Position numbers and translations under genes: made by a program. From Patescibacteria group bacterium (GTDB lineage: Bacteria > Patescibacteriota > Patescibacteriia > UBA1558 > GWA2-36-10), in NCBI GenBank assembly GCA_041665505.1, contig JBAYIR010000007.1, forward strand, positions 1-55,716: 55,716 bases of DNA. Direction: 5' to 3'. Below are positions 13,217 through 52,302 of this stretch, piece by piece (within the stretch, counting starts at the first letter, position 1; each line of letters starts with the position of its first letter). The notes under the pieces are model-generated. The model had not been told where the DNA came from and searched no databases. It saw only the letters and a list, made by a program, of their open reading frames with translations.

Positions 13217-13243
13217 GCCGGGGCGCGCGTTGCGCACCCCGGC
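13217..13243 (-). terminator. island A terminator (GC hairpin)
   Basis: gccgggg-c-gcgc/gcgc-a-ccccggc hairpin 8 nt after the A1 stop, followed by a T-rich tail on the minus strand. Confidence 0.7.
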
Positions 13244-13251
13244 GTGGATCC

Positions 13252-13608
13252 TCAGATCCAGTACTTCAGCTCCTGGCGGCTGAACTGTCTGATCTTCGCC
13301 GCCTGACGGCGGGAGATCCCATGTCGCTGAGCGAACTCAGCATTGGTCTCCTGGTCGGGACAGTCAGGACCTGGCGTGAGCTGACGAGCTCTCTGCTGAA
13401 TGGTCTCGAAGCGATGATGCTTGAGAACATCCCAGCTGAACTGAGAGTCGTAGCAGCACTCGCATCCCCAACGCCGGACATTGTAGAAGGTGACCTCCTG
13501 ACACTGCGAACAGGCAGTACTCTCCCAGTAGTAGGGATCATTCATACACCTGTTCAGGTATTCGGTCAGCACGACATGTTCGTAGCTCCAGCGGCGCTCG
13601 GATTCCAT
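13252..13608 (-). CDS. island ORF A1: Cys-rich protein with C-terminal HTH-like segment (118 aa)
   Basis: SD AAGGAG 6 nt before the ATG, with its own promoter and terminator. Motifs CSQC, GCECC and TNAEFAQRHGISRRQAAKIR. Confidence 0.65.
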   Translation of the reverse strand: MESERRWSYEHVVLTEYLNRCMNDPYYWESTACSQCQEVTFYNVRRWGCECCYDSQFSWDVLKHHRFETIQQRARQLTPGPDCPDQETNAEFAQRHGISRRQAAKIRQFSRQELKYWI

Positions 13609-13800
13609 GGTTGGCTCCTTCTGAAGAATGCGTGGTCGAGACCAGCACCTTCAGAAAGGAGAGAGAAGGGGAAGGATGAGACTGAAGGTGCTTCAGATTT
13701 GCACCTAGCCTTAGTGAAATTCCCAGTTCCAAGGCATTTCTGCCTCTCTTTCATTGAAGAACGCACTCCGTCAGAAATACGAATATTTCTGACCCAAAGT
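13609..13800 (-). promoter_or_regulatory. structured GC-rich 5' leader of A1
   Basis: 10-bp hairpin capped by a UUCG loop (13770-13793). An 11-bp long-range stem (13644-13654 / 13682-13692) encloses a CU-rich loop and competes with a local hairpin (13682-13696). Confidence 0.5.
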
Positions 13801-13804
13801 AAAC

Positions 13805-13838
13805 ATTATATACTAACATATTTAAGCTATTTTGTCAA
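13805..13838 (-). promoter_or_regulatory. promoter of A1
   Basis: On the minus strand: TTGACA, 17-nt spacer, TAGTAT with TGn, and an overlapping TATAAT. It shares an identical 22-nt -35/UP segment with 14865-14886. Confidence 0.65.
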
Positions 13839-13851
13839 TGATATTATTTAT

Positions 13852-13887
13852 CTAAAACAAAAAGCCGGTACAATATTTCATGTACCG
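13852..13887 (-). terminator. terminator of the A3-A2 operon
   Basis: Stem cggtaca/tgtaccg followed by a T-run on the minus strand. Confidence 0.6.
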
Positions 13888-13938
13888 ACCAAGATCATCA
13901 CTCGGGGGTGGATGATCAAAACCCTTTGGTCTGGCTCC

Positions 13939-14283
13939 CTACGGAGCCTCGAGATCTTGATGCTCGAAGGGCAGAGCGCCCATTTGCTCCGCGTCCAGGA
14001 AGAACACGGGAAGATGCATCGTAGGCAAGCCGAAGTGTCGACCCGTCAGCTCTCTGGTAACCTCGGCGACCAGAGAGGCGTCCTGGCAGAGAATCAGCAG
14101 CTGGTTGCCCAACTTGAAGTCGGACCACAACCTGTTGTGGGGGATGCTCGTATCCCTCACTTCAACGTTGACAGTCATGCGTTCTCGGAGCTTGAGCACC
14201 TTGATGACCCTCTCGAGAGTCCCGGCTGTTGCGGGGTTGAGGTCAACCGTGCTCAGGTTGAGGTAAAGGATAAATAGGATCAT
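13939..14283 (-). CDS. island ORF A2: hypothetical protein (114 aa)
   Basis: SD GGAAGGAAGGG 3 nt before the ATG. Second gene of the operon. Confidence 0.6.
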   Translation of the reverse strand: MILFILYLNLSTVDLNPATAGTLERVIKVLKLRERMTVNVEVRDTSIPHNRLWSDFKLGNQLLILCQDASLVAEVTRELTGRHFGLPTMHLPVFFLDAEQMGALPFEHQDLEAP

Positions 14284-14343
14284 GTCCCTTCCTTCCGTTT
14301 TGGCCCAAGAAGGACCGTGTGAACGTGCGAGCTCAGGCGAGAG

Positions 14344-14673
14344 TTACTGCTTCTTCTGGAGCTGCTCCAGGCAGTCTTGAATCTCTGCATAAGCATCACG
14401 TTCGTCTTCTGTGACACCTCTCTTATAGAGAAGCATCGTTGATTGGGCTTGTCTTTGCTCGAAGTTTCCACCCTTGAACTCAAAAGTGTATTTACCAGGT
14501 CGAAAAAAAGGAAAGAAAAAATGACCAAAACCACTGCGTACACAGATGATCGTGTACGAATAAGTATCCGTATCGCATTGTTTGAGTACCTGACCATTTT
14601 CACCACAACCAGCCATGGCGACCAGACTGACGGTGAAGACGACGAGCATGAGGATCTGCCAGAACTTGCGCAT
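14344..14673 (-). CDS. island ORF A3: putative lipoprotein (109 aa)
   Basis: Signal peptide ending in a lipobox-like VAMAGC. AGGAAAGAG lies upstream of the ATG. Confidence 0.6.
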   Translation of the reverse strand: MRKFWQILMLVVFTVSLVAMAGCGENGQVLKQCDTDTYSYTIICVRSGFGHFFFPFFRPGKYTFEFKGGNFEQRQAQSTMLLYKRGVTEDERDAYAEIQDCLEQLQKKQ

Positions 14674-14845
14674 TCTCTTCTCACTCTTTCCTTGTTTAGC
14701 AGTTCTTACACTGCCGTGCTTGTGCCAGAACGCAGAATTATCTAGGCACTATACTGGGCTTAAGTTTTTTTAACTTATTCTTAAGCTTTCAATATAGTGG
14801 CTAGATAATATTTTTTTAAAAGAACTTATTTTAAGTTAATGCAGT

Positions 14846-14874
14846 ATTATATAATAAATATACAATTTTGTCAA
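14846..14874 (-). promoter_or_regulatory. consensus promoter of the A3-A2 operon
   Basis: On the minus strand: TTGACA (14869-14874), 17-nt spacer, TATAAT (14846-14851). Confidence 0.7.
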
Positions 14875-14965
14875 TGATATTATTTAATTTAAGTTATAAA
14901 AAATATTAATTTCTATAATCAACATTTTTTGCTATAATACAAGAGTAAAAATTAATAAAAAAATT

Positions 14966-17287: not shown

Positions 17288-17312
17288 CCGGGGCGCGCTG
17301 CGCGCACCCCGG
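17288..17312 (-). terminator. island B terminator, near-identical to the island A terminator
   Basis: ccgggg-c-gcgc tgc gcgc-a-ccccgg. It has the same C/A mismatch as 13217-13243 and a T-rich tail on the minus strand. Confidence 0.7.
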
Positions 17313-17324
17313 CCGAGCTAGTGG

Positions 17325-17675
17325 CTACTCAGTAGCCATGTCGCTTTCGCTCATGAAGATCTCCAACCGACATCCGTAGATTCGGATGCCGAGCTTCTCG
17401 GCTCTGAGGGCCAAGATGACCAGATCAGCCTCGAGGCGGTCACTGTAGATGATCAACAGGGAGGGTTTGTCCACGGTCGGACCAGACACAGCCTTGTCCA
17501 CGGTCGGACCAGACACAGCCTTGACCACCTGCACATTGTCATGCAGATTGACCTCAGCATCATCCCCCAGTTTAAACTGTTTGATCACCCGCAAGATGGC
17601 ACCGAGGACACGCTTCTTGACGGCCATGGTATCTGTGTCTTTACTACCAAGGCCGTAGACCCCGAACAGGAACAT
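17325..17675 (-). CDS. island ORF B1: hypothetical protein, paralog of the B2 N-terminal domain (116 aa)
   Basis: Start moved to the ATG at 17675, which has SD AAGGAAGGAAG 3 nt upstream. Alignable to B2 (VLGAILRVIKQFKLGDDAEVNL vs VLSVICRVVQELRLRDDAVITL). Confidence 0.6.
   Translation of the reverse strand: MFLFGVYGLGSKDTDTMAVKKRVLGAILRVIKQFKLGDDAEVNLHDNVQVVKAVSGPTVDKAVSGPTVDKPSLLIIYSDRLEADLVILALRAEKLGIRIYGCRLEIFMSESDMATE
17467..17520. repeat. perfect 27-bp tandem duplication inside B1
   Basis: 17467-17493 equals 17494-17520. The duplication is in frame and encodes KAVSGPTVD twice. Confidence 0.9.
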
Positions 17676-17735
17676 TGGCTTCCTTCCTTTCAGAACTCCG
17701 CGATCCAAGCTGTGGAGCACTTGTCTGGGCGATCT

Positions 17736-18227
17736 CTAGAAGTCGAACTCTCCGGCGCCGGAGAGGCTGCTGCCCTCTTCCGGACCATCGATCTCGTCGC
17801 CTCCGTCGTCGTCGAGATGATCGCTCATCTGTCTGGCACTGGGGTCCAAGAGGGAGAGTTGGGGATTCTTTTTCGGACCATCGATCTCGTCGCCTCCGTC
17901 GTCGTCGAGTGGCCGACCCATCTCGCTTGCGCTGAAGAATTTGTTCAGGGCCGGTACTTCCGTGTCGAGCCGGAGGTTGTTCATCTTGAGAGCCAGCAGA
18001 ATGTGGCCCAGGTCGATCGGCTCGGGACAGAAGATCTCGAGGTAGGGTTTGGCCTGCGGTAGGCCAGGAACAGCCTGGAACACCTGGGACGAGAAGAGGG
18101 TGATGACAGCGTCATCTCGGAGGCGCAGTTCTTGAACCACACGGCAGATGACACTGAGCACCCATTCCCTGAGGGTAATGACCTCGATGGTATTGCCACC
18201 GAGACCATGTAGTTTGAAGTTGGGCAC
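17736..18227 (-). CDS. island ORF B2: hypothetical protein with acidic repeat tail (163 aa, GTG start)
   Basis: SD AAGGAAGGAG 5 nt before the GTG at 18227, which is 17 nt after the B3 stop. The C-terminus carries LDDDGGDEIDGP twice. Confidence 0.55.
   Translation of the reverse strand: MPNFKLHGLGGNTIEVITLREWVLSVICRVVQELRLRDDAVITLFSSQVFQAVPGLPQAKPYLEIFCPEPIDLGHILLALKMNNLRLDTEVPALNKFFSASEMGRPLDDDGGDEIDGPKKNPQLSLLDPSARQMSDHLDDDGGDEIDGPEEGSSLSGAGEFDF
17781..17909. repeat. two perfect 36-bp direct repeats inside B2
   Basis: 17781-17816 equals 17874-17909, a 93-nt in-frame offset. Confidence 0.9.
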
Positions 18228-18244
18228 GTCGACTCCTTCCTTGT

Positions 18245-18853
18245 CTAGAACTCCGCGATCCACGCGGTGAACCACTCGTCCGGACGATCGACATTGACCG
18301 TCAGAACGATTTTGCAGGTGCTCAAGTGCTTGAGCGGCGCACAGTTGTAGTACATTCCCAAGAAGATCTGCCGGGAGCTGGTCTCGCTCAGGCGGGTCTC
18401 GTTGAAGACCCCCAGGCGGGATTTTCCCAACTTGATCTGTTGGCGCAGGAGCCCGCTGTCGGACGACTGGTCGGTAGACCATTGGCCGAGGTTGTAGCTC
18501 TGCCAGACCAGACCGCGTCCCAGTGGCAGTGCGAAATCCAGTTCACCGGAAACGAAGCGGATCTTCTCCGCGCCGTCAACCGTGGACCAGGTCGGGCCAG
18601 CACCGACTTCGAACTTGTCGAAGCCGGGCACAGAGGTAGCGTAGCGAATCAGGACGTTCGACTGCTCGCCCGTGACGAACCAAGGATGGATCATCCAGCT
18701 GTCGCTGAGGTAGTAGTCGGCGAAGAACACGATCGGGATGTCGGAGCGGAGCTCCAGTCCGAAGGCATTGTCGCCAGCCATGGCCGGCTGGACGCTGATG
18801 ATGGTGAAGAGCACCAAGGCGAGGAGTAGTGAGTAGATGTTCTTGGAGCGCAT
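18245..18853 (-). CDS. island ORF B3: secreted beta-barrel-like protein ending in Phe (202 aa)
   Basis: SD GGAAGGAAAG, signal peptide ...VQPAMA/GD, alternating beta-strand-like pattern and C-terminal ...FTAWIAEF. Confidence 0.6.
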   Translation of the reverse strand: MRSKNIYSLLLALVLFTIISVQPAMAGDNAFGLELRSDIPIVFFADYYLSDSWMIHPWFVTGEQSNVLIRYATSVPGFDKFEVGAGPTWSTVDGAEKIRFVSGELDFALPLGRGLVWQSYNLGQWSTDQSSDSGLLRQQIKLGKSRLGVFNETRLSETSSRQIFLGMYYNCAPLKHLSTCKIVLTVNVDRPDEWFTAWIAEF

Positions 18854-19019
18854 GACTTTCCTTCCGGTGAGTGGACCTCTTTGGCCTGTTCAAATGTCTT
18901 CTAAGAAGTCACTTGAATTTGGCCGCTTACTTATCTATCGCCAAAGCTTAGCTACAGACGCTGCTTGTTGTCCATTTTTGGACTTGTATAAGGACAAATC
19001 GCACGGATTTTAACATTTT

Positions 19020-19048
19020 AAAGTAACATAGTTTATTGATTTTGTCAA
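19020..19048 (-). promoter_or_regulatory. promoter of the B3-B2-B1 operon
   Basis: On the minus strand: TTGACA, 17-nt spacer, TACTTT with a TGn extension. Confidence 0.5.
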
Positions 19049-19098
19049 TGTAGATAAATATGCTTTATTATTGATTTTATGACTTATACTTGTTTATA

Positions 19099-19127
19099 TT
19101 GACAATTTATATATTTTATGATATAAT
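19099..19127 (+). promoter_or_regulatory. divergent consensus promoter of B4
   Basis: TTGACA, 17-nt spacer, TATAAT (perfect consensus). Confidence 0.7.
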
Positions 19128-19197
19128 AATATATTAAGTTCAGAGTCCCGAGTTGATAAACCGGCCAAGCAATTGGCCTTAGACAGAGGAGATACTC

Positions 19198-19422
19198 ATG
19201 ATCCGTTCACTCAAGACCATTTTCAGCCCTTTCCGGCTGGTCTACGCCGGTGCTTCTCTCTGCCTCTACAACAGAGAGGCACATCGGAGCAAGATGGCCC
19301 AGCTGGCCGAAGGTGAACGCCTCTTCACCGAGGTGCTGGTTGGCGGCTTCATCACCGCCCTGATGGTCATCACCATCGTTTTCGCCAGTCGCTACATCGC
19401 GGCCGGCAGTATCTTGGTCTAG
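19198..19422 (+). CDS. island ORF B4: small protein with C-terminal TM helix (74 aa)
   Basis: SD GAGGAG 6 nt upstream, with its own promoter and terminator. Confidence 0.55.
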   Translation: MIRSLKTIFSPFRLVYAGASLCLYNREAHRSKMAQLAEGERLFTEVLVGGFITALMVITIVFASRYIAAGSILV

Positions 19423-19449
19423 GCCTGGCTCACGAGCTAGACCTGACCG

Positions 19450-19484
19450 GCCCCGGATCTGCGCAGATCCGGGGCTAGTTTTTT
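19450..19484 (+). terminator. island B right-hand terminator
   Basis: 13-bp perfect palindrome gccccggatctgc/gcagatccggggc followed by T6. Confidence 0.75.
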
Positions 19485-32538: not shown

Positions 32539-32599
32539 TTATTTTAAATTAGCTAATAAATATAGAAAACAAGACTATCTGTCTTGTTTTTTGGTATAA

Positions 32600-32628
32600 T
32601 TGACAAATTTGATAATTTATGATGTAAT
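32600..32628 (+). promoter_or_regulatory. promoter of island C
   Basis: TTGACA, 17-nt spacer, TGTAAT with a TGn extension. Confidence 0.6.
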
Positions 32629-32674
32629 CTGCTTACTGGAAGCAATCACCCCATACTTCAGGGAGGAAAAGTCC

Positions 32675-32989
32675 ATGAATGATTTTGACGACGTACTCCA
32701 ATATGGTCCTCATGAACCCTCGAGGTCCAGGACGCCCAGCATCTTCAATGGCAACCACTGCACTTGTGGTGGTTTGGTCAATTTGCAGACGGGCGTCTGC
32801 TGGCGGTGCCACCACCAGCACACTCTCGATCTGGATGGCGGCCAGCGCAATGCCAAGCCCAAGCCTCAGGTCTCTGAGGCAGAAAACTTGTTGCGATCGG
32901 TCAGCCTCAGCGAGAAGCAGTGCGATCTCTGCTTTCATGGAACCATCGGCGAGGATGGAAAATGTGATGTATGTGAGAACAGTCCGTAA
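32675..32989 (+). CDS. island ORF C1: double zinc-ribbon-like protein (104 aa)
   Basis: Start moved to the ATG at 32675, which has SD GGGAGGA 7 nt upstream. Motifs CTC...CWRC and CDLC...CDVC. Confidence 0.65.
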   Translation: MNDFDDVLQYGPHEPSRSRTPSIFNGNHCTCGGLVNLQTGVCWRCHHQHTLDLDGGQRNAKPKPQVSEAENLLRSVSLSEKQCDLCFHGTIGEDGKCDVCENSP

Positions 32990-33034
32990 ATCATTGCGGA
33001 CCATTCTAGGCGCTATCAGCGCCATTGCCTTCCA

Positions 33035-33069
33035 GAGAGCCGCGGACATGTTCGCGGCTCTCTCCTTTT
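33035..33069 (+). terminator. island C terminator
   Basis: 10-bp stem gagagccgcg/cgcggctctc followed by cttttt. Confidence 0.7.
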
Positions 33070-33109
33070 TACAAAAAATATGTTAAGATAAAAGAGTTTT
33101 AATAGTCAT

Positions 33110-40388: not shown

Positions 40389-40404
40389 TTTTTTTAAAAT
40401 TTGA

Positions 40405-40435
40405 GACCCCGCCACGTTTCTGACGTGGCGGGGTC
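40405..40435. terminator. GC hairpin shared by the convergent uvrC and island D gene
   Basis: gaccccgccacg / cgtggcggggtc, starting 16 nt after the uvrC stop and ending 22 nt after the D1 stop. Confidence 0.65.
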
Positions 40436-40457
40436 CTTGCTTCTGGCTCAGCTGAGC

Positions 40458-40880
40458 CTAGGGATTGGCCGTGGTGGCCGGCTCGGGCCAGACGTGGTAG
40501 CCCAGCTTGAGGCCATCGGGGCCAGCGATCTCGGTCCGGGTCCGGATGGCATTCATGTTGAACACCAGACGACCGTAGATGGTCCGCTGATCTCCCTTGG
40601 GCAGGGCGTTGATCAGGGCACAGGCGTAGGACCAGCGCCGGGCGCTCTCGTGGTCGTGATGGCGTTCCTTGCGCAGACTGCGCAGGGCATCGGTGATGCC
40701 GAAGATATCACCCAGAGCGAGTTCTTCGGACTTGAACCAAGGCTGGTTCAGGATGGTGTGACCCAAGAGGGCCGCACCTTCCTCGTCATCAGGCATGACG
40801 ACAGCCATGTCCTCGAACGGAACGCCGAGGAAGGCGAAGAGGTCCTGGTAGTGATCGATCTTGGCAGCGGGGTGCTTCAT
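40458..40880 (-). CDS. island ORF D1: hypothetical protein (140 aa)
   Basis: SD AGGAG 9 nt upstream, with its own promoter and terminator. Confidence 0.6.
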   Translation of the reverse strand: MKHPAAKIDHYQDLFAFLGVPFEDMAVVMPDDEEGAALLGHTILNQPWFKSEELALGDIFGITDALRSLRKERHHDHESARRWSYACALINALPKGDQRTIYGRLVFNMNAIRTRTEIAGPDGLKLGYHVWPEPATTANP

Positions 40881-41009
40881 GTCAGTTAACTCCTGGCTCT
40901 AGCTTTTGTTTTTTTGCTAGTATTTTTCAACTAGCGCTCCTCCTTGAATCCGACGAATCCTTTCACGGTCTAGGGTGAATGGTGATGGGGGTGAACATAG
41001 AATTAATAT

Positions 41010-41037
41010 AATATAGAACAAAATCACTTTTTTGTCA
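41010..41037 (-). promoter_or_regulatory. promoter of D1
   Basis: On the minus strand: TTGACA, 16-nt spacer, TATATT. Confidence 0.55.
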
Positions 41038-41115
41038 AGCAGATAATTATAGAAAAATTACTGCTATTTTTAATTTTATTAATTTAATCTTAAATTTATG
41101 CTATAATTTATATCT

Positions 41116-42721: not shown

Positions 42722-42810
42722 AATCTTTTATTTCCAGTACTTATATTATAGGGGTATTTGCCATTTTTAGCAAAATAGATTATAATAATTTTACTTTAAA
42801 ATTGAATAAT

Positions 42811-42973
42811 TTATCAAGAGAGCGGGGAGAGAATTGGCTCTATAATCCGCCAGCAACCCACTTACGCATCGCTTTTAGCGAGGAGCGAAGTAGGGTGCTA
42901 AGTCCAACCCTTAATTAAGGCAGGGAAAGATGATAAAATCATTATTACTTTCTCTGTTCGGGAAAGTTTTTTT
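42811..42973 (+). promoter_or_regulatory. SAM-I (S-box) riboswitch with terminator
   Basis: TTATCAAGAGAG..GGGGAGAGAATTGGCTCTATAATCCGCCAGCAACC...GGTGCTAAGTCCA...GAAAGATGATAA, then stem actttc/gaaagt plus T7 (42947-42973). It lies directly upstream of metK. Confidence 0.85.
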
Positions 42974-42997: not shown

Positions 42998-44008
42998 ATG
43001 TTAAAAACTGCAGAAAATGTAACTTTTGGTCATCCAGACAAAGTTTGTGATCAGATCTCGGATGCTATTTTAGATGAGTGTTTACGTCAAGATCCAAATA
43101 CCAGAGCTGGTATTGAAGTAGTAGGTGGGCATGGTCAATTATTTATTACCGGTGAGGTGAGTACCAAGGCTGATTTTGATGCTGCTCAAATAGCTAGAGA
43201 TTTATATAAAGAAATTGGTTATCAGGAAGAATTAAAAATAATGGTCAATATTGTCAGACAAAGTCCGGATATTGCTAGAGGAGTAGATACTGGTGGAGCT
43301 GGTGATCAAGGTATTATGGTTGGCTATGCTACTAGTGAGACTGAAGAATTATTACCTCGTGAGCATGTTTTGGCCAATAAGTTGGCTAGAAAATTGGAAG
43401 AAGTCAGACTTAAAGGCGAAACTGATTTAGCCAAAGTACTAATGCCAGATGGCAAATCTCAAGTTACTTTGGATAATGGTACTGTAGATACAGTAGTAGT
43501 CTCTACTCAACACAAAGAGGGCGTTGATCAAAATCAACTGAGAGAATGGATCATCAGTGAAGTGGTTAAACCTATCATACCTGAGTATAAAAAGATATTT
43601 ATTAACCCCACTGGCTCTTTTGTCCAGGGTGGCTTTGAGGCAGATGCTGGATTAACTGGTCGGAAAATAATTGTGGATAACTATGGTCCACAAATACCAG
43701 TGGGTGGTGGTTGCTACAGTGGTAAAGATGCTACCAAAGTTGACCGTTCAGCTGCTTTTATGGCTCGTTATTTAGCGGTAAAATATCTTAAGGAATATAA
43801 TGCCAAAGAAGTATTGGTTAAATTAGCCTATGCTATTGGTGAACCACAACCAGTCATGGCTACAGCCTTAGTTGACGGACAATCCGTTGAAATTAAAGGT
43901 TATGATTTGTCTCCAAAAGGTATTATTGACAAACTTAATTTGAGAAAACCACAATATAGAGATAGAGCTAGGTATGGTTATTTTGTTGCTTTTGATGTTA
44001 AAGAATAA
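42998..44008 (+). CDS. metK: S-adenosylmethionine synthetase (compact, 336 aa)
   Basis: GHPDKVCDQISDAILD, GAGDQGIM and GGGCYSGKDATKVDRS motifs. Confidence 0.9.
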   Translation: MLKTAENVTFGHPDKVCDQISDAILDECLRQDPNTRAGIEVVGGHGQLFITGEVSTKADFDAAQIARDLYKEIGYQEELKIMVNIVRQSPDIARGVDTGGAGDQGIMVGYATSETEELLPREHVLANKLARKLEEVRLKGETDLAKVLMPDGKSQVTLDNGTVDTVVVSTQHKEGVDQNQLREWIISEVVKPIIPEYKKIFINPTGSFVQGGFEADAGLTGRKIIVDNYGPQIPVGGGCYSGKDATKVDRSAAFMARYLAVKYLKEYNAKEVLVKLAYAIGEPQPVMATALVDGQSVEIKGYDLSPKGIIDKLNLRKPQYRDRARYGYFVAFDVKE

Positions 44009-44012
44009 GTCC

Positions 44013-44041
44013 TTGACTAATACTAAGCGCATTGATATTAT
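44013..44041 (+). promoter_or_regulatory. island E cassette 1 promoter
   Basis: TTGACT, 17-nt spacer, TATTAT with TGn. Confidence 0.6.
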
Positions 44042-44050
44042 AAATATAAT

Positions 44051-44119
44051 ATGAATAAACAGATAGAACAATCAAATTTTTTAAAGGTTTATTTTATTAT
44101 TGGTCGTTTGACGACTTAG
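44051..44119 (+). CDS. leader mini-ORF 1 (22 codons)
   Basis: The ATG lies 9 nt after the -10 box. Encodes MNKQIEQSNFLKVYFIIGRLTT. The TAG stop sits just 3' of hairpin gtcgt/acgac, which is followed by a T-run. Confidence 0.35.
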   Translation: MNKQIEQSNFLKVYFIIGRLTT

Positions 44120-44154
44120 TTTTTGCGTATATTTTATAATATAAACAAAGATTA

Positions 44155-44178
44155 GGTCGCCTCAAGCGACCTTTTTTT
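44155..44178 (+). terminator. leader terminator 1
   Basis: Stem ggtcgc/gcgacc followed by T7. Confidence 0.65.
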
Positions 44179-44239
44179 GATGGAGTTCATTACACACGCC
44201 AAGCCAAGTCAAAACTAGCCTTTAGGAAAGGGGTCTGAA

Positions 44240-44431
44240 ATGGTCAGATTTCGACATCCTAGTGGCACCGGATTCATAGATGTCTGTTACTGTCGCCCCT
44301 GTTTGAATTGTGATTACGATCACTGTCTGCATCGTCAAGATGCTGACGCTTCTCTCAAGGAAGAACAGCCAGACACGAAAAATGTCTTAGACAAGGAAGG
44401 AGGAAATCCAACAGAAGCGGATCTTCACTAG
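44240..44431 (+). CDS. island ORF E1: Cys-rich small protein (63 aa)
   Basis: SD AGGAAAGGGG. Motif CYCRPCLNCDYDHC. Confidence 0.55.
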   Translation: MVRFRHPSGTGFIDVCYCRPCLNCDYDHCLHRQDADASLKEEQPDTKNVLDKEGGNPTEADLH

Positions 44432-44461
44432 TGGGGAAAACAAAACCAAGGATGGTTAGCC

Positions 44462-44683
44462 ATGCAGCAAGTTAGTTCTGTGATCTCAGGAAAAGACTGC
44501 TGTGCCTGTGTTGGCCCGGCTTCCCGTGACCATGGTCATGATATCTTTTCCTGCGAAAACCACGAATGCGTGGTGGTGGCTCAGACCGTGGCTAATAGGT
44601 TTGTGGCTTCTCTGCGCGGAGACATGCAGAGCGAGTTGGCTCTTGATCTGGATCAGTTTCCTGATATCGGCCGTAGGCTTTAG
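44462..44683 (+). CDS. island ORF E2: Cys-rich small protein (73 aa)
   Basis: SD AAGGATGG. Motifs DCCAC and SCENHEC. Confidence 0.55.
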   Translation: MQQVSSVISGKDCCACVGPASRDHGHDIFSCENHECVVVAQTVANRFVASLRGDMQSELALDLDQFPDIGRRL

Positions 44684-44708
44684 GCTTTTCGGCTGTCGGC
44701 ATTGGTTA

Positions 44709-44740
44709 GTCGCGGACATTCCTTCGGGAATGTCCGCGAC
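44709..44740 (+). terminator. 14-bp GC hairpin with UUCG loop ending cassette 1
   Basis: gtcgcggacattcc ttcg ggaatgtccgcgac. The T-tail is weak. Confidence 0.5.
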
Positions 44741-44756
44741 CTCAAATTCATATAGT

Positions 44757-44784
44757 TTGACTAATTTTTGAAAAATGATAATAT
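44757..44784 (+). promoter_or_regulatory. island E cassette 2 promoter
   Basis: TTGACT, 16-nt spacer, TAATAT with TGn. Confidence 0.6.
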
Positions 44785-44791
44785 ATTTAAT

Positions 44792-44866
44792 ATGCAAGAT
44801 ATAAACAGACAATTGAATCAAAATTATTTTGGTTTTTACTTTTTCTTTAGTCGTCAGGCGACTTAG
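44792..44866 (+). CDS. leader mini-ORF 2 (24 codons)
   Basis: The ATG lies 7 nt after the -10 box, so the mRNA is probably leaderless. Encodes MQDINRQLNQNYFGFYFFFSRQAT. The TAG stop sits just 3' of hairpin agtcg/cgact, which is followed by a T-run. Confidence 0.35.
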   Translation: MQDINRQLNQNYFGFYFFFSRQAT

Positions 44867-44910
44867 TTTTTTGCATATATATTTATTAAAATAAATTGAG
44901 CATAGAAGCA

Positions 44911-44936
44911 AGTCGCCAAGCAGGCGGCTTTTTTTG
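44911..44936 (+). terminator. leader terminator 2
   Basis: Stem agtcgcc/ggcggct followed by T7. Confidence 0.65.
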
Positions 44937-45009
44937 ATAGTTCTTTCCATCTTTTCTTTCTGGATTCTTCTCTTGGTGTCAGCGTTCACCTACAAACGGA
45001 GGAAATCTC

Positions 45010-45144
45010 ATGAAGCACAAGCCAGACCTTAAGACCAGAGACCAAGCAGCTGGCCAGACCAAGCCTTCCAAAGAGGCTATAGCAGAGTTTGCCCGTCTGG
45101 TGGCCGAGCAACTGGCTAGCAGCCGGCATGGCTGCGGCATGTGA
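45010..45144 (+). CDS. island ORF E3: small protein (44 aa, not in ORF track)
   Basis: SD GGAGGA 7 nt upstream. Encodes MKHKPDLKTRDQAAGQTKPSKEAIAEFARLVAEQLASSRHGCGM. Confidence 0.5.
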   Translation: MKHKPDLKTRDQAAGQTKPSKEAIAEFARLVAEQLASSRHGCGM

Positions 45145-45169
45145 GTCTAACCAGACATCAATCGGGGGT

Positions 45170-45201
45170 GTGCCCGCAACATTAGCTAATGTTGCGGGCA
45201 C
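45170..45201 (+). terminator. 14-bp GC hairpin ending cassette 2
   Basis: gtgcccgcaacatt agct aatgttgcgggcac. Confidence 0.55.
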
Positions 45202-45207
45202 TTCTAT

Positions 45208-45236
45208 TTGACAGTCAAAATTTTTTATGATATTAT
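45208..45236 (+). promoter_or_regulatory. island E cassette 3 promoter
   Basis: TTGACA, 17-nt spacer, TATTAT with TGn. Confidence 0.6.
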
Positions 45237-45255
45237 TTTTTTATAAAAATTCAAT

Positions 45256-45306
45256 ATGTTTAGGAGTTTAATTATCATTATCAGCATTATTTTGTTAACG
45301 CCCTAG
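45256..45306 (+). CDS. leader mini-ORF 3 (16 codons)
   Basis: Encodes MFRSLIIIISIILLTP. The TAG stop lies inside hairpin cgcc/ggcg, which is followed by a T-run. Confidence 0.3.
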   Translation: MFRSLIIIISIILLTP

Positions 45307-45359
45307 GCGATCAGATTTTTGTTGCTAGTAATAATTTAACTTCCAAACATCAAAAATGA

Positions 45360-45388
45360 ATCGCCCAGCTGGCGGTTTTTCTTTTTTG
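45360..45388 (+). terminator. leader terminator 3
   Basis: Stem atcgcc/ggcggt followed by a ttttcttttttgg tail. Confidence 0.6.
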
Positions 45389-45492
45389 GAGAAAGTACAT
45401 TATCAATTCTATGCTTGTTTGACTGGAATTTCAGTTTCTGGGTCTAGCCTGAGAGTGAGTGTCGTCTACACCAGCACAAGGAGGCTTTCCTG

Positions 45493-45738
45493 ATGGACCA
45501 GATGCATTCAGACAGATACCAGCCCAAGAAAGGGCCGGCATTGATTCCGATTGTCAAGAAGGTTCTTCAGCGTATCTACGCTGAAGAGGATTTGGGAGGA
45601 GTCGACCCCATCCGCTCGGCGGAAAACGAATCCCTGATTGCCTTCTACCTGCGGCAGAACTGCCGCTGTCCGGCTGACAGCCAGTGGTGCATGTGCGGTG
45701 GAGGTTTCACTGTGTCTGACGGAAGGCGGAGCCCTTAG
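45493..45738 (+). CDS. island ORF E4: Cys-rich small protein (81 aa)
   Basis: SD AAGGAGG 8 nt upstream. Motifs NCRC and WCMC. Confidence 0.6.
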   Translation: MDQMHSDRYQPKKGPALIPIVKKVLQRIYAEEDLGGVDPIRSAENESLIAFYLRQNCRCPADSQWCMCGGGFTVSDGRRSP

Positions 45739-45759
45739 TCAAGCTTCAAGGAGGAAGAG

Positions 45760-46053
45760 GTGTTTCAGGAGGATGAGAGGCCTAAGAGGCCTCAAGATTT
45801 GCCCAAAGGGTTGTGGCGCTGCCAGTACTGTGAACAGGAGTTTTGTACTCCACTTAGTTGTTTGGAGAGGCTCAGAGCCCTTCACTCAGAAAGAGAGCGA
45901 GAAATGAAGGATCGAGACGAGCAAAAGGTGGCTAGCGACCAAGAACAGCCGCCAACTGAGAAGCCTCAGGCTCCCAGTGTTTGTGCTGAATGTCAGTGCC
46001 CTGACCGTCAGCATGGTCGTGAATGTTCTTACCATATTGCGGTCATCATCTGA
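45760..46053 (+). CDS. island ORF E5: Cys-rich small protein (97 aa, GTG start)
   Basis: SD AAGGAGGA 4-5 nt upstream. Motifs CQYC..FC..SC and CAECQC. Confidence 0.55.
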   Translation: MFQEDERPKRPQDLPKGLWRCQYCEQEFCTPLSCLERLRALHSEREREMKDRDEQKVASDQEQPPTEKPQAPSVCAECQCPDRQHGRECSYHIAVII

Positions 46054-46079
46054 CCAAGAGGTCAGCGACGACCTTAGAA

Positions 46080-46118
46080 GCCCCACCACGTCCGACGTGG
46101 TGGGGCTCTATATTTTTT
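46080..46118 (+). terminator. island E final terminator
   Basis: gccccaccacgt / acgtggtggggc followed by a T-run. It resembles the hairpin at 40405-40435. Confidence 0.7.
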
Positions 46119-46313: not shown

Positions 46314-46595
46314 ATGGCAAAACTAACAAAGTCTCAATTGCTAAACGTCTTGTCAGACAAGACTGGCTTGAGCAAAAAAGATGTGGGAAATTTCTTGGAT
46401 ACATTAGCTACATTAGCTTACAGCCAAGTTAAAGGAAGTGGTGAATTTACCTTGCCAGGTTTAGGTAAATTGGTAAAGAAAAATCGTGCTGCCCGTGAAG
46501 GACGCAACCCAGCCACTGGAGCAACTATCAAGATTCCAGCTAAGACCGTGGTTAAATTCCGTGTAGCTAAAGCTGCTAAAGACGCAGTACTCTAA
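46314..46595 (+). CDS. hup: DNA-binding protein HU
   Basis: Typical HU sequence (GRNPATGATIKIPAKTVVKFR). Confidence 0.93.
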   Translation: MAKLTKSQLLNVLSDKTGLSKKDVGNFLDTLATLAYSQVKGSGEFTLPGLGKLVKKNRAAREGRNPATGATIKIPAKTVVKFRVAKAAKDAVL

Positions 46596-49642: not shown

Positions 49643-50968
49643 ATGCATGTGGTAACGGTAGATATGGGTTACGGACACCAGCGAGCAGCCTATCCTTTTT
49701 CTGATAGTGCCTATCGAGGAATTATAAATGCTAATCATTACCAAGGTATCAGTAAGAAAGAGCAACAGCAGTGGGATAGTGGCCGTAAGTGGTATGAAAT
49801 TATTTCTCGTTTTAAAAATGTGCCAATTCTTGGTACATCGGCCTTTGCCATCATGAATCATTTTCAAGAGATAGAACCACTTTATCCCAAACGTGATTTA
49901 TCAAAAAATTCACAGCAGCAAAAATATTTTTATAAGCAAGTTAAAAAAGGTTTAGGTAAACATTTGATAGAGGAGTTAAATACACAAATTCCTAGTGGTT
50001 ATAAAAAACCTCTGCCATTTTTGACTACTTTTTTTGTTCCAGCTTATTTCGCGGAGTATTATGGTTATAAAAATGATATTTATTTGGTAGTTTGTGATGC
50101 TGATGTGGCGCGGGCTTGGGCACCTTATGATGCCAAAAATAGCCGTATTATTTATCTAGCGCCAAATAAAAGGGTCAAAGAAAGATTAGAGTTGTATGGC
50201 GTTAGATCAAATAAAATATTTGTAACAGGTTTCCCTTTGCCTAAGGAAAATATTGGTGGCTACAAACAAAGCATTCTTCGCACAGATATAGCTAGCCGGC
50301 TTTACAATCTTGACCCCAAAGGTGTTTATCGTAAAAAGTACGGTAAATTAATAGAAGATTATCTTGGCCCAGTCAAAAATATTAAGAAACCGCAGCATCC
50401 TTTGACTATTACTTTTGCTGTGGGAGGAGCTGGAGCACAGCGAGATATTGGGGTTATATTATTGAATAAATTAGATAAATATTTAAAAACAGGCAAAATT
50501 AGGCTCAATCTTGTGGCTGGTGTGAGAAATGATGTTTATCTTTACTATCAAAAAGTGGTCAGTGCTCGTAATTTGGATAAATGTAAGAATGTTAATTTGG
50601 TCTATGCTGAAGATAAAACTGCTTATTTTAAAACTTTTAATAAATTACTGCGGACGACAGATATACTTTGGACCAAACCATCAGAGCTGACTTTTTATAG
50701 TGGTTTAGGAATCCCAATTATTATGTCTGAAGCAATTGGTTCTCAAGAAAATTATAATCGCGGTTGGCTTCTAGCTATTGGGGCAGGGGTAGATAGTTTA
50801 AATCCCCATTACGTTGACGAATGGTTATTTGATTGGCTTGATTCTGGTTGGTTGGCTGAAGCAGCTATGGAAGGATTTTTAGATGCCCCAAAAATGGGTA
50901 CTTATCATATCGAAAACATAATATTTAAACATCAGACTACAGAAATAGAGGATGTACATTTGTTATAA
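49643..50968 (+). CDS. glycosyltransferase (MGDG-synthase/GT28-like)
   Basis: N-terminal VDMGYGHQRAA and central FAVGGAGAQ motifs. A GTG at 49622 is an alternative start. Confidence 0.5.
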   Translation: MHVVTVDMGYGHQRAAYPFSDSAYRGIINANHYQGISKKEQQQWDSGRKWYEIISRFKNVPILGTSAFAIMNHFQEIEPLYPKRDLSKNSQQQKYFYKQVKKGLGKHLIEELNTQIPSGYKKPLPFLTTFFVPAYFAEYYGYKNDIYLVVCDADVARAWAPYDAKNSRIIYLAPNKRVKERLELYGVRSNKIFVTGFPLPKENIGGYKQSILRTDIASRLYNLDPKGVYRKKYGKLIEDYLGPVKNIKKPQHPLTITFAVGGAGAQRDIGVILLNKLDKYLKTGKIRLNLVAGVRNDVYLYYQKVVSARNLDKCKNVNLVYAEDKTAYFKTFNKLLRTTDILWTKPSELTFYSGLGIPIIMSEAIGSQENYNRGWLLAIGAGVDSLNPHYVDEWLFDWLDSGWLAEAAMEGFLDAPKMGTYHIENIIFKHQTTEIEDVHLL

Positions 50969-52302
50969 TGAAAATTGCCAGCTTAAAAATTAATTGTTAC
51001 AAAAGCATCAAAGAGCCAATGGTCTTAGATTTACAGTCACTAAGTATTTTGATTGGTCAAAATAATAGTGGTAAAACTAATATCTTGGATGCTATTGAGT
51101 TTGCCTTAGGTGGTCGGATTGATGATCAAGATATTTTTTATGAAAAAGCGGATATAGAGATTGATTTGATATTTGATGATCAAGAGCAAGATCGTCATAA
51201 ATTTCCTGAGGCCAGAGCAAAATTTGTGCTCAAAGATAGTAGTAGAAAATTAATTTTTAGTAAGCAAGAGCTGAATTATAATAAGAATCTTTCCATTTTA
51301 ATTTCTTCCCGTATTAAAGTTTTAGACGAAAAAGCTTTTCATGATTATACGCAGATAGAATTAGATTATCATTCTTTATTTAATTATCCTAGTAATTTGG
51401 ATAAGTTTAAAGAGCATCTGAAAAATCATTTTCCCAAGATATCGGCTACTAAAAATGCTTTGGATATTCGTTATGAAAATGATGGTCTTTATGAAGATAA
51501 ACGTCGGGTGACTATCGATCGTTTGGGTTCTGGTTTTCAGCGTATTTTTACAATACTTTTATATATTTTTCATCCTCAATATTCACTAGTAATGATTTCT
51601 GAGCCAGAAACTCATCTGCATCCAGCTATTACACGAAAACTTCTTTGGGCGATGGCCAATTCTAATTTTGGGCAGATTATTTTTACTACCCATTCACCGT
51701 TGTTTGTTACACCAATTAGTTTGGGTAATGTTATTCGTATAGTTAAAGATGATAAAAATTCCACTAAAGCTTTTTCCATTGATAATAAAAAATATAATTA
51801 TCAGAGATTGATTCAAGAATTGGATGCTGATAATTTAGAGATGTTTTTTACCGATGAGGTAATCTTAGTGGAAGGAGTATCAGATAAATTATTGCTGAGA
51901 GGTTTAATAGACAAATTTTATCAAGGACAAAAAGATTTTAAAGTAATTCAGACGCACGGTAAAGGCAATATGAAATTGTATGTAGATTTGCTTAGCATCT
52001 TTCAAATTCCTTATTTGGTGATTTTGGATAAGGATGTCATGAAAACCAGCCATTTAAGGGATTTGATGAGGTATCTACAAATTAATTTACCACCATTACA
52101 TGATCAAGCACTGATTAATGCTTTGAAAGAGTATAATATTTACGTTTTGCCAAATGGCGATTTAGAAAATAATTATCCTCGCCGTTATCAAACAGATGAT
52201 AGTAAATCACTTAATGCCTTGAGAGCGGCCAATTTGATTACTATTGAAGATTATAAGTCAAAATCTATGGATAATTTAAGAGAAATAATAGAAAATATTT
52301 AG
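50968..52302 (+). CDS. OLD-family nuclease (AAA ATPase plus Toprim)
   Basis: Walker A GQNNSGKTN, LGSGFQR, Walker B LVMISEPETHLHP, and Toprim motifs ILVEGVSDK and ILDKDV. Confidence 0.75.
   Translation: MKIASLKINCYKSIKEPMVLDLQSLSILIGQNNSGKTNILDAIEFALGGRIDDQDIFYEKADIEIDLIFDDQEQDRHKFPEARAKFVLKDSSRKLIFSKQELNYNKNLSILISSRIKVLDEKAFHDYTQIELDYHSLFNYPSNLDKFKEHLKNHFPKISATKNALDIRYENDGLYEDKRRVTIDRLGSGFQRIFTILLYIFHPQYSLVMISEPETHLHPAITRKLLWAMANSNFGQIIFTTHSPLFVTPISLGNVIRIVKDDKNSTKAFSIDNKKYNYQRLIQELDADNLEMFFTDEVILVEGVSDKLLLRGLIDKFYQGQKDFKVIQTHGKGNMKLYVDLLSIFQIPYLVILDKDVMKTSHLRDLMRYLQINLPPLHDQALINALKEYNIYVLPNGDLENNYPRRYQTDDSKSLNALRAANLITIEDYKSKSMDNLREIIENI

Follow-up and report, generated by a model that had tools for sequence, protein, structure and literature searches.

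Tandem leaders with the features of leader-peptide attenuators precede orphan cargo genes on an inserted island in Patescibacteria

We analyzed a 55,716-nt stretch of DNA, herein termed the window, from a Patescibacteria group bacterium (contig JBAYIR010000007.1 of GenBank assembly GCA_041665505.1, positions 1 to 55,716 of the forward strand), in which an island of small orphan genes lies between metK (42998-44008) and the HU gene hup (46314-46595). The island is built of three tandem units, each opening with a leader that holds a promoter, a mini open reading frame (mini-ORF), and two hairpins with T-runs, followed by one or two cargo genes (E1-E2, E3, and E4-E5). Based on comparisons with related loci and on RNA folding, each unit is probably a ribosome-mediated (leader-peptide) transcription attenuator, and the signals sensed would be the supplies of charged tRNA for Phe/Tyr and for Ile. 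The leaders are a new family of a known regulatory kind, outside the Rfam Trp and Phe leader families.

Three leader units share one architecture

A sequence-only reading of this DNA had proposed three promoters, each followed by the same series of elements, and all of these were recovered. Specifically, a consensus scan found the promoters at 44013-44041, 44757-44784, and 45208-45236, and we confirmed mini-ORFs of 22, 24, and 16 codons with ATGs 9, 7, and 19 nt past the respective -10 boxes. A small hairpin plus T-run (hairpin 1, pairing segments 1 and 2) covers the last codons, and a stronger terminator hairpin plus T-run (pairing segments 3 and 4) closes each leader, both just where they had been predicted. 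The TAG stop, thought to lie in or just 3' of hairpin 1, sits in its loop in unit 3 and immediately 3' of it in units 1 and 2. The leader features are as follows.

44013-44041 (+), unit 1 promoter: TTGACT, 17-nt spacer, TATTAT, extended -10 TG (promoter scan)
44051-44119 (+), mini-ORF 1: MNKQIEQSNFLKVYFIIGRLTT, 22 codons plus TAG, effectively leaderless
44102-44116 (+), unit 1 hairpin 1 (1:2): -4.9 kcal/mol, then TAG and a U-run at 44120-44125
44112-44125 with 44146-44159 (+), unit 1 antiterminator: 14 bp, about -18 to -19 kcal/mol
44154-44178 (+), unit 1 terminator: 3:4 hairpin at 44154-44172 plus T7 (scan, folding)
44162-44171 (segment 4 plus loop) with 44102-44111 (+), unit 1 1:4 helix (folding)
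44757-44784 (+), unit 2 promoter: TTGACT, 16-nt spacer, TAATAT (promoter scan)
44792-44866 (+), mini-ORF 2: MQDINRQLNQNYFGFYFFFSRQAT, 24 codons plus TAG, leaderless, with a Phe/Tyr run
44849-44863 (+), unit 2 hairpin 1: -5.2 kcal/mol, then TAG and a U-run at 44867-44873
44857-44874 with 44900-44917 (+), unit 2 antiterminator: about -20 to -21 kcal/mol (pair list, alignment fold)
44910-44935 (+), unit 2 terminator: hairpin at 44910-44930 plus T7
44923-44929 with 44849-44855 (+), unit 2 1:4 helix (pair list, alignment fold)
45208-45236 (+), unit 3 promoter: TTGACA, 17-nt spacer, TATTAT, matching 11 of 12 consensus positions
45256-45306 (+), mini-ORF 3: MFRSLIIIISIILLTP, 16 codons plus TAG, with an Ile run and no Shine-Dalgarno sequence
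45299-45309 (+), unit 3 hairpin 1: TAG in the loop
45256-45286 with 45320-45350 (+), unit 3 ORF:spacer helix: 27 bp, enclosing hairpin 1 (folding, pair list)
45306-45324 with 45348-45365 (+), unit 3 antiterminator: about -12 to -15 kcal/mol (folding, shuffle control)
45358-45387 (+), unit 3 terminator: hairpin at 45358-45378 plus TTTTTCTTTTTT (scan, alignment fold)

The 5' untranslated region (UTR) of mini-ORF 3 is roughly 12 nt, as estimated from the 19-nt gap between its -10 box and ATG. Such starts match those of the surrounding genes: a Shine-Dalgarno-like 4-mer was upstream of none of the 36 host genes of at least 150 aa in the window, and several host ATGs lie 6-11 nt past a -10 box (e.g., 12298, 41116, 5577, and 10681), which implies leaderless mRNAs. 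The mini-ORFs thus use what appears to be the normal initiation mode of the host. All island cargo genes, unlike the host genes, have strong GGAGG Shine-Dalgarno sites.

The combined topology was rare. A scan of both strands of the window for a hairpin and a downstream terminator, each with a T-run, set 20-75 nt apart and sharing 2:3 complementarity of at least 6 bp returned exactly the three leader loci, compared with a mean of 0.25 in 20 dinucleotide shuffles, none of which contained two or more. Moreover, the consensus scan of the window exposed no plus-strand promoter-like site between any terminator and its downstream ORF, and this, together with the low conservation of the intervening UTRs described below, upholds the earlier statement that E1-E2, E3, and E4-E5 have no promoter of their own behind the terminators.

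The island is an insertion found in a narrow clade

To identify relatives, we searched proteins with E5, E2, and MetK, scanned for one DNA pattern, and ran HMMER exhaustively with E2. The island locus was recovered from five further metagenome sources, six in all including the window, and always lay between metK and hup in a narrow Patescibacteria clade; the island-bearing loci were the window, L084+L082, L083, L086, L097, L100/L101, and L102/L103. DNA of L084+L082, L085, and L083 was ~85-88% identical to that of the window. The more distant L086 (metK 75% DNA identity) contained all three units in the same order, with five genes. Unit 1 was present in L097 and L100/L101, with the start of unit 2 additionally in L101, and L102/L103 carried four tandem units between metK and hup, one of them of a new type, with 6 or more genes. 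An assembly chimera was ruled out by the identical layout in six independent sources.

In protein word searches with E5 and E2, all matches were near relatives in Logan assemblies, and the exhaustive HMMER search with E2 added two further distant small homologues that led to L100-L103; a 2887-aa match to E2 (P0056) was rejected as a repetitive artefact. The metagenome pattern scan gave 9 matches, among which L086 was the sole true relative, and the match in L088 fell in repetitive DNA rich in GGCGAC/GTCGCC and was judged to be due to chance. Searches with nhmmer leader profiles across the window and ~1 Mb of fetched loci yielded no copies beyond the orthologous islands. Likewise, blastn against phage DNA gave no matches, nor did queries of viral contigs with two proteins and a single DNA pattern.

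In L002, L003, L095, and L096 (MetK 69-81% identical), hup was located directly behind metK, with no island, and one relative (L098/L099, 86%) had an unrelated insert at the same site. The absence in the former and the different DNA in the latter indicate an insertion of variable content, AT-rich leaders included, rather than native intergenic DNA. Hence the earlier description of the cargo as foreign is supported, with the whole island, leaders and all, missing from the nearest relatives.

The content of the metK-hup site differed among close relatives (L098/L099, L102, L086 at 3900-4250, and a JGI 3300072015 contig), and L086 had an additional promoter-plus-gene cassette behind hup. The pattern suggests a hot spot at which cassettes are gained and lost.

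The mini-ORFs changed only synonymously in their conserved blocks

The leaders were the best-conserved part of the island, with 0-6 changes per ~170 nt against the relatives of ~86% identity. Leader 1 had 0 substitutions relative to L084 in the ~170 nt downstream of the promoter spacer, leader 2 had six changes relative to the ~86% relatives, and leader 3 matched them at 51/51 positions of the ORF (L082 and L083), 49-50/50 of the spacer, and 32-33/33 of the terminator. Identities to the same relatives were 79-91% in cargo genes, 67-92% in the UTRs between terminator and gene, and 95% in hup. Compared with L086, the window retained 68-77% identity in the leaders, 75% in metK, and 48-65% in the cargo genes, and the terminator-to-gene UTRs, at about 47-50%, were essentially unalignable and the least conserved stretch of each unit. 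The -35 and -10 boxes of unit 1 were kept in L084, L086, L097, and L100.

Within the conserved blocks of the mini-ORFs, the window and L086 differed by 10 synonymous changes in all and by 0 non-synonymous ones. These blocks hold roughly 21 synonymous and 84 non-synonymous sites, and the neutral expectation is about four non-synonymous changes per synonymous one. Specifically, the last 8 codons of mini-ORF 1 (FIIGRLTT) had 2 synonymous changes, the last 14 codons of mini-ORF 2 (NYFGFYFFFSRQAT) had 4, and the first 13 codons of mini-ORF 3 (MFRSLIIIISIIL) had 4, each with 0 non-synonymous changes. The N-terminal 10 codons of mini-ORF 2 varied freely. Judged by these substitutions, the mini-ORFs are conserved as ORFs under purifying selection at the codon level, and appear to be translated.

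Runs of particular codons were among the retained features. Unit 2 had 7 Phe/Tyr in a 9-codon run in every lineage with a complete run, and the unit-2-type leader of L102 retained the Phe/Tyr run SFFFFYFFS. In unit 3, 6 Ile were kept in three lineages, and the unit-3-type leader of L102 encoded MFRNLIIIISIILIAP. Unit 1 and unit C of L102 had a mixed, variable block of aromatic residues plus Ile (unit 1 orthologs: NFSFFYFTF, KIYFDFII, HKFTTLYSI, and SDWYFILHY). Lengths were 22 codons for unit 1 and 24 for unit 2 in the three closest lineages, and the distant leaders differed. The sequence-only reading had cautioned that AT-rich DNA favors Phe, Tyr, and Ile codons in any case; this is fair with respect to unit 1 but is answered for units 2 and 3 by the synonymous-only change in their runs.

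These data also bear on the main alternative for the signal, in which the same attenuator would sense general translation stress (antibiotic, toxin, or phage-induced stalling, or inhibited release at UAG), much as leaders of the erm/cat and bmrCD/vmlR types do, and the peptide blocks would be arrest sequences. We consider this unlikely, albeit better placed than the two weaker rivals, a micropeptide gene and a small RNA or DNA element, that are taken up below. A stress sensor would suit cargo that is accessory and fast-evolving, not biosynthetic, as well as the position of the conserved block in units 1 and 2, which is the C-terminal stretch before the stop, where an arrest peptide would occupy the exit tunnel. 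The stop codon itself is also unusual, in that UAG ends 11 of the 14 complete leader ORFs (L100 unit 1 and L102 unit A end in UAA) versus 4 of 36 host genes, 30 of which end in TAA, and a defence-type OLD/AAA_15 gene is located 5 kb away. However, the C-terminal conservation falls mostly inside hairpin 1, such that RNA structure could explain it, and the exclusively synonymous change in the Phe/Tyr and Ile runs suggests that what matters there is which codon or amino acid is present. Moreover, the peptide beyond the runs varies freely, and the cargo matches no resistance or defence family.

A predicted antiterminator competes with the terminator and covaries

Folding of whole leaders gave z-scores of -7.0 (unit 1), -3.1 (unit 2), and -5.0 (unit 3). 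The complementarity between hairpin 1 and the terminator that had been read from the sequence is exact (44112-44117 with 44154-44159, including one G:U; 44857-44863 with 44911-44917; and 45306-45311 with 45360-45365), but the 2:3 pairing extends to 13-20 bp, not 6-7, with the U-run behind hairpin 1 pairing with the A-rich stretch ahead of the terminator. In units 1 and 2 the UAG itself belongs to this antiterminator helix. Similarly, the classical 1:2 / 2:3 / 3:4 topology that had been claimed is present but does not exhaust the structures. In units 1 and 2, segment 1 plus its loop is complementary to segment 4 plus its loop, so that the free RNA is predicted to be one long hairpin (-35 and -28 kcal/mol, respectively) ending at the U-tract. 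In unit 3, mini-ORF codons 1-11 pair with the spacer in the 27-bp helix around hairpin 1.

Folded as sub-sequences, hairpin 1 typically came to about -5 kcal/mol, whereas the terminator ranged from -9 to -12 kcal/mol and the antiterminator from -12 to -20 kcal/mol. Hairpin 1 covered the last 4-5 codons at -4.0 to -5.2 kcal/mol in seven distinct sequences (window, L084, and L086) and was not obvious in L102 unit A. All 14 leaders had a terminator with a G+C-rich stem of 7-9 bp and a U-run, 100-120 nt past the ATG, and in all 14 the antiterminator duplex (-13 to -22 kcal/mol) outcompeted it (-8 to -13 kcal/mol), making the alternative pairing thermodynamically competitive. Against shuffled upstream sequence, the antiterminator z-scores of these 14 ranged from -1.9 to -5.8. 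When units 1 and 2 were folded with a 30-nt mask representing a ribosome, the antiterminator formed without the terminator only for an A site on codons -7 to -9 before the stop, which is the site of the Phe/Tyr/Ile codons. Masks at the stop codon or at codons -3 to -6 led to the 3:4 terminator.

We evaluated covariation separately for each unit type, since hairpin 1 of unit 3 was misaligned in a single MAFFT alignment of all three types. For unit-1-type leaders (four lineages), the RNAalifold consensus was the 2:3 antiterminator, in which 5 of 14 pairs had changed on both sides and 96% of cells were paired. This covariation was matched by 5 of 500 shuffles, and slid controls were 28-54% paired with 0-1 compensatory pairs. 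One of the covarying pairs, A:U to C:G, involves the stop-codon A, at the point where L102 lost its UAG. The loop-to-loop part of the unit 1 1:4 helix showed one compensatory and four one-sided changes, none disruptive, and for unit-2-type leaders the alignment fold had the long 1:4 plus 2:3 hairpin as its consensus. In unit-3-type leaders (five sequences), the ORF:spacer helix held at 27 bp with three compensatory pairs, two of them offsetting synonymous changes at third positions and one offsetting S4N, the sole amino-acid replacement.

An alternative is that promoter, mini-ORF, and terminator are a gene for a small aromatic or hydrophobic (membrane or toxin-like) micropeptide, in which case the cargo would be expressed by leak-through or from unrecognised promoters and the 2:3 complementarity would be a by-product of a strong hairpin terminator. 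The purifying selection on the peptide blocks would be expected of such a gene, as would the very hydrophobic peptide of unit 3, and the free RNA of units 1 and 2 folds, at minimum energy, into a single long hairpin resembling a terminator. Nevertheless, we find it improbable, given that the peptides are 16-31 aa, that most of the unit 1 and 2 peptides are polar or variable, and that ORF length and C-terminus vary (16 versus 22 aa in unit 3 and 31 aa in L102 unit A). Covariation, furthermore, backs a 2:3 helix that includes the U-run/A-run extension, which a plain terminator would not need, and three to four unrelated cargo sets always lie directly behind a leader, without a promoter of their own; nor was a conserved antisense promoter seen. 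A type I toxin-antitoxin system was rejected on the same grounds of peptide size, the mostly polar N-terminus in units 1 and 2, and the antisense strand, where promoter-like matches occur at differing relative positions in the three units and are easily produced by AT-rich DNA.

A box with the consensus GTTCWTTMC was located at 44185-44193, 44940-44948, and 45395-45404 (GTTCATTAC, GTTCTTTCC, and GTACATTATC, respectively), 5-10 nt past the T-run of nearly every leader in all lineages, including L086 (at about 1367-1375, 2141-2149, and 2626-2634) and L102, where it lies behind each terminator. It sits where the AT-rich module joins the GC-richer cargo and may mark a processing site or a module boundary, among other possibilities. 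The box at this junction fits a further alternative, in which the terminated leader of ~130-150 nt is a structured small RNA (trans-acting or processed by RNase III) or the inverted repeat is a DNA-level cassette boundary or recombination site, as do the long helices of 24-27 bp and the extreme nucleotide conservation that extends to loops and spacer. This seems to us a very distant prospect. That only synonymous substitutions occurred shows coding to matter, and neither the window nor its relatives have an integrase or recombinase within 10 kb. The nhmmer searches, moreover, exposed no further copies, and expression of the cargo would be left unexplained. Integron cassettes were likewise rejected, because each cassette has its own consensus promoter and no integrase domain was present among the called genes within 10 kb in the relatives of the window.

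A model for attenuation by the leader peptide

The attenuator that we favor would operate as follows. A strong sigma-70 promoter would produce an RNA that opens with a host-style mini-ORF, leaderless or nearly so and without a Shine-Dalgarno sequence, and hairpin 1 with its U-run over the ORF end would pause RNA polymerase until a ribosome arrives. If none does, units 1 and 2 would adopt the long hairpin (1:4 plus 2:3), and unit 3 would form the 3:4 hairpin together with the ORF:spacer helix; as these free-RNA structures abut the U-tract, transcription would terminate. A ribosome that reaches the UAG beside segment 2 would mask segments 1 and 2 and the U-run, allowing the 3:4 hairpin to form, again with termination. 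However, a ribosome stalled 7-9 codons before the stop, on the Phe/Tyr codons of units 1 and 2, would mask only segment 1; in unit 3 the stall site would be the Ile run, 5-11 codons before the stop. In this stalled state, segment 2 and the U-run would pair with the A-rich stretch and segment 3 to form the 13-20 bp antiterminator, leaving segment 4 single-stranded and permitting read-through into the Shine-Dalgarno-led E1-E2, E3, and E4-E5.

Several observations weigh against this model. The aromatic block of unit 1 shifts in position and content across lineages, and AT-rich DNA favors such codons. The unit 3 stop is 6 codons further downstream in L086 (22 versus 16 aa), and L102 unit A has lost its UAG, giving an ORF of 31 codons; the placement of the stop with respect to segment 2 is thus not rigid. 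The antiterminator of unit 3 is the weakest, with z = -1.35 for the segment 1-4 stretch alone, and z is only about -2 in L102 unit C and L086 unit 3. Only 4-5 lineages represent each unit type, and across them the G+C helix cores are invariant. Furthermore, the long hairpin would double as an ordinary strong terminator for transcripts of metK and of the cassettes ahead of it, and the cargo has no link to Phe or Ile metabolism. Still, the translation-sensing attenuator put forward in the sequence-only reading is supported in silico, with all four of the findings that could have told against it coming out in its favor: the energetics of the alternative pairing, covariation in homologous leaders (5 of 14 pairs in the unit-1-type and 3 pairs in the unit-3-type helix), the lack of promoters behind the terminators, and the conservation of the mini-ORFs.

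Comparison with known regulatory leaders

The units resemble the classical Escherichia coli and Salmonella leaders (trpL, pheL/pheA, pheM of pheST, ilvL, leuL, hisL, and thrL) in several respects. As in the trp, phe, ilv, leu, his, and thr leaders, a short promoter-proximal ORF has, less clearly in unit 1, a candidate regulatory run of codons for a single amino acid just upstream of segment 1, a 1:2 hairpin lies over the ORF end, pairing as a 2:3 antiterminator rules out the 3:4 intrinsic terminator and vice versa, and the stop is placed such that a terminating ribosome would mask segment 2. The unit 2 peptide FYFFFS presumably resembles the pheST leader FFFYFST, and we take LIIIISIIL of the unit 3 peptide to resemble the ilv and leu leaders. 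Unlike the classical leaders, those described here precede unrelated, fast-evolving orphan proteins rather than biosynthetic genes, and thus lack the defining feature of amino-acid operon leaders. They also differ in having mini-ORFs that are leaderless or without a Shine-Dalgarno sequence, in a Patescibacteria host; in the pairing of segment 1 with segment 4, giving a third state that would likewise terminate; in the U-run behind hairpin 1 forming half of the antiterminator, and the 27-bp ORF:spacer helix of unit 3; and in the tandem occurrence of the module, 3-4 times on an inserted island.

At gathering thresholds, Rfam models matched nothing in the island, and only two tRNAs and a SAM riboswitch in the window. 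Matches under the thresholds included amino-acid leader families, with scores of 23.7 bits on unit 1 for Trp_leader (RF00513; threshold 41) and, for Phe_leader (RF01859; threshold 55), 22.1 bits on unit 3, 18.4 on unit 2, and 30.2 on unit 2 of L086. These lie far under the gathering thresholds, and the leaders are therefore not members of either family.

Antibiotic-responsive leaders provide another comparison. ermC and cat are controlled by translation attenuation, and bmrCD, vmlR, and lmo0919 by transcription attenuation, through leader ribosomes stalled by an antibiotic. The erm/cat and bmrCD/vmlR leaders are akin to ours in that a ribosome stalled on a short ORF remodels the downstream RNA, the cargo is accessory, and some have an intrinsic terminator, whereas here no ABC-F protein, methyltransferase, or efflux pump is among the cargo, and the codon run for a single amino acid is conserved. 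Phage morons are independent units with their own sigma-70 promoter and hairpin terminator, carrying small genes of deviant composition between unrelated genes. In contrast to these, the units here lie on a cellular chromosome between metK and hup, without PHROG, phage-DNA, or viral-contig matches, and we know of no leader-peptide attenuators in phage morons.

With respect to leaderless ORFs, a preprint on mycobacteria describes a leaderless polycysteine short ORF, the first cistron, that attenuates the downstream operon in response to that amino acid, and which is like ours in being leaderless, short, and rich in one amino acid (bioRxiv 10.1101/834739). The mycobacterial ORFs reportedly control Cys-related genes, whereas the leaders here have Phe/Tyr and Ile runs and are not Cys-rich, though they precede Cys-rich cargo, and they have a canonical intrinsic terminator and a covarying antiterminator.

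Cargo genes and genomic setting

The cargo genes and the hairpins that end the cassettes are as follows.

44240-44431 (+), E1: unit 1 cargo, 63 aa
44462-44683 (+), E2: unit 1 cargo, 73 aa
44709-44740 (+), GC-rich hairpin at the end of cassette 1: without a U-run and not flagged by the terminator scan
45010-45144 (+), E3: unit 2 cargo, 44 aa
45170-45201 (+), hairpin terminator at the end of cassette 2 (terminator scan)
45493-45738 (+), E4: unit 3 cargo, 81 aa
45760-46053 (+), E5: unit 3 cargo, 97 aa, GTG start
46079-46118 (+), hairpin terminator at the end of the island (terminator scan)

E1 and E2 are Cys-rich, have Shine-Dalgarno sequences, and are GC-richer than host genes. The cargo as a whole had been described as Cys-rich, but this does not apply to E3, which has a single Cys. 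Substitutions in the cargo were enriched at third codon positions, with Cys motifs kept, indicating that the ORFs are real coding genes. Their evolution is fast, non-synonymous codon changes being as numerous as synonymous ones. E1-E5 showed no similarity to one another, and neither they nor the other island proteins matched Pfam, PHROG, or PADLOC. The E2 family had 4 real members among 1.84 billion representative proteins (HMMER). An AlphaFold2 model of E5, built from a 3-sequence alignment, was of low quality (mean pLDDT 63.8, pTM 0.36).

Logan contigs of several samples (L001, L082, and L084) start or end inside the 32-nt palindromic terminator of E3 (45170-45201), which is most likely a break of the assembly graph at an inverted repeat and not a biological boundary.

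The window has ~33% G+C, with nearly all genes on the plus strand, and its nearest species representatives are Patescibacteria metagenome-assembled genomes with MetK identities of 76% and 69%. Within the island, G+C is 45-58% in ORF-bearing stretches versus 28% in three short AT-rich stretches. The metK gene, upstream of which lies a SAM riboswitch (42808-42936), lacks its own terminator; the stop codon of metK extends to 44008, and the first -35 box of the island begins at 44013. The terminator of leader 1 probably also ends the metK transcripts begun at the riboswitch. Downstream of the island, the gene at 50968-52302 mentioned above encodes OLD-like TOPRIM and AAA_15/AAA_21 ATPase domains, a combination typical of anti-phage defence systems, and is kept in relatives.

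Other cassettes in the window

At least six further cassettes of 50-57% G+C with orphan genes were located between host genes of ~33% G+C.

13217-13850 (-), cassette
13860-14890 (-), cassette
17290-19060 (-), cassette
19100-19480 (+), cassette
32590-33075 (+), cassette
40400-41040 (-), cassette

Each has its own AT-rich sigma-70 consensus promoter, a strong GGAGG site, and a G+C-rich terminal hairpin. The nhmmer leader profiles detected no mini-ORF leader in them, and searches of Pfam, PHROG, and PADLOC with their proteins gave nothing. Three of the minus-strand cassettes have promoter modules that are paralogs of one another (family D4), and the cassette at 40.4-41.0 kb is missing from L002. 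The 17.3-19.0 kb island contains (at 17467-17520 and 17775-17934) a 27-nt sequence perfectly duplicated in tandem and a 67-nt repeat with copies that are 81% identical and spaced 93 nt apart, and its minus-strand proteins at 17325-17720 and 17736-18239 are paralogs (30% identity, E = 4.5e-11).

Implications

Leader-peptide attenuation is a textbook mechanism of amino-acid biosynthesis and, lately, of antibiotic resistance, and the units described here would extend it to a copy-and-paste module that gates orphan accessory genes, in a host lineage with minimal metabolism and almost no known gene regulation. Patescibacteria, to our knowledge, generally lack amino-acid biosynthesis, and a literature search that paired Patescibacteria with leader peptide and attenuation turned up no attenuators from this group. 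Tentatively, and as a possibility rather than an expectation, we propose that a portable leaderless attenuator module was duplicated ahead of unrelated cargo, with copies tuned to Phe/Tyr versus Ile, and that an episymbiont of the candidate phyla radiation (CPR) may read tRNA charging as a measure of host supply, switching on fast-evolving, Cys-rich, effector-like proteins. If so, no attenuator family had previously been described in CPR bacteria, and none of the amino-acid type on non-metabolic, arms-race-type genes.

The leaders also offer a clean comparative case of dual constraint, in which codon identity and RNA pairing act on the same nucleotides, and, for synthetic biology, a compact regulatory module of ~180 nt that does not require a Shine-Dalgarno sequence. 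If confirmed, the conditions that induce the units would provide a handle on otherwise intractable orphan proteins, and the leaders would illustrate a way for an ultra-small symbiont to sense its amino-acid supply or stress on translation.

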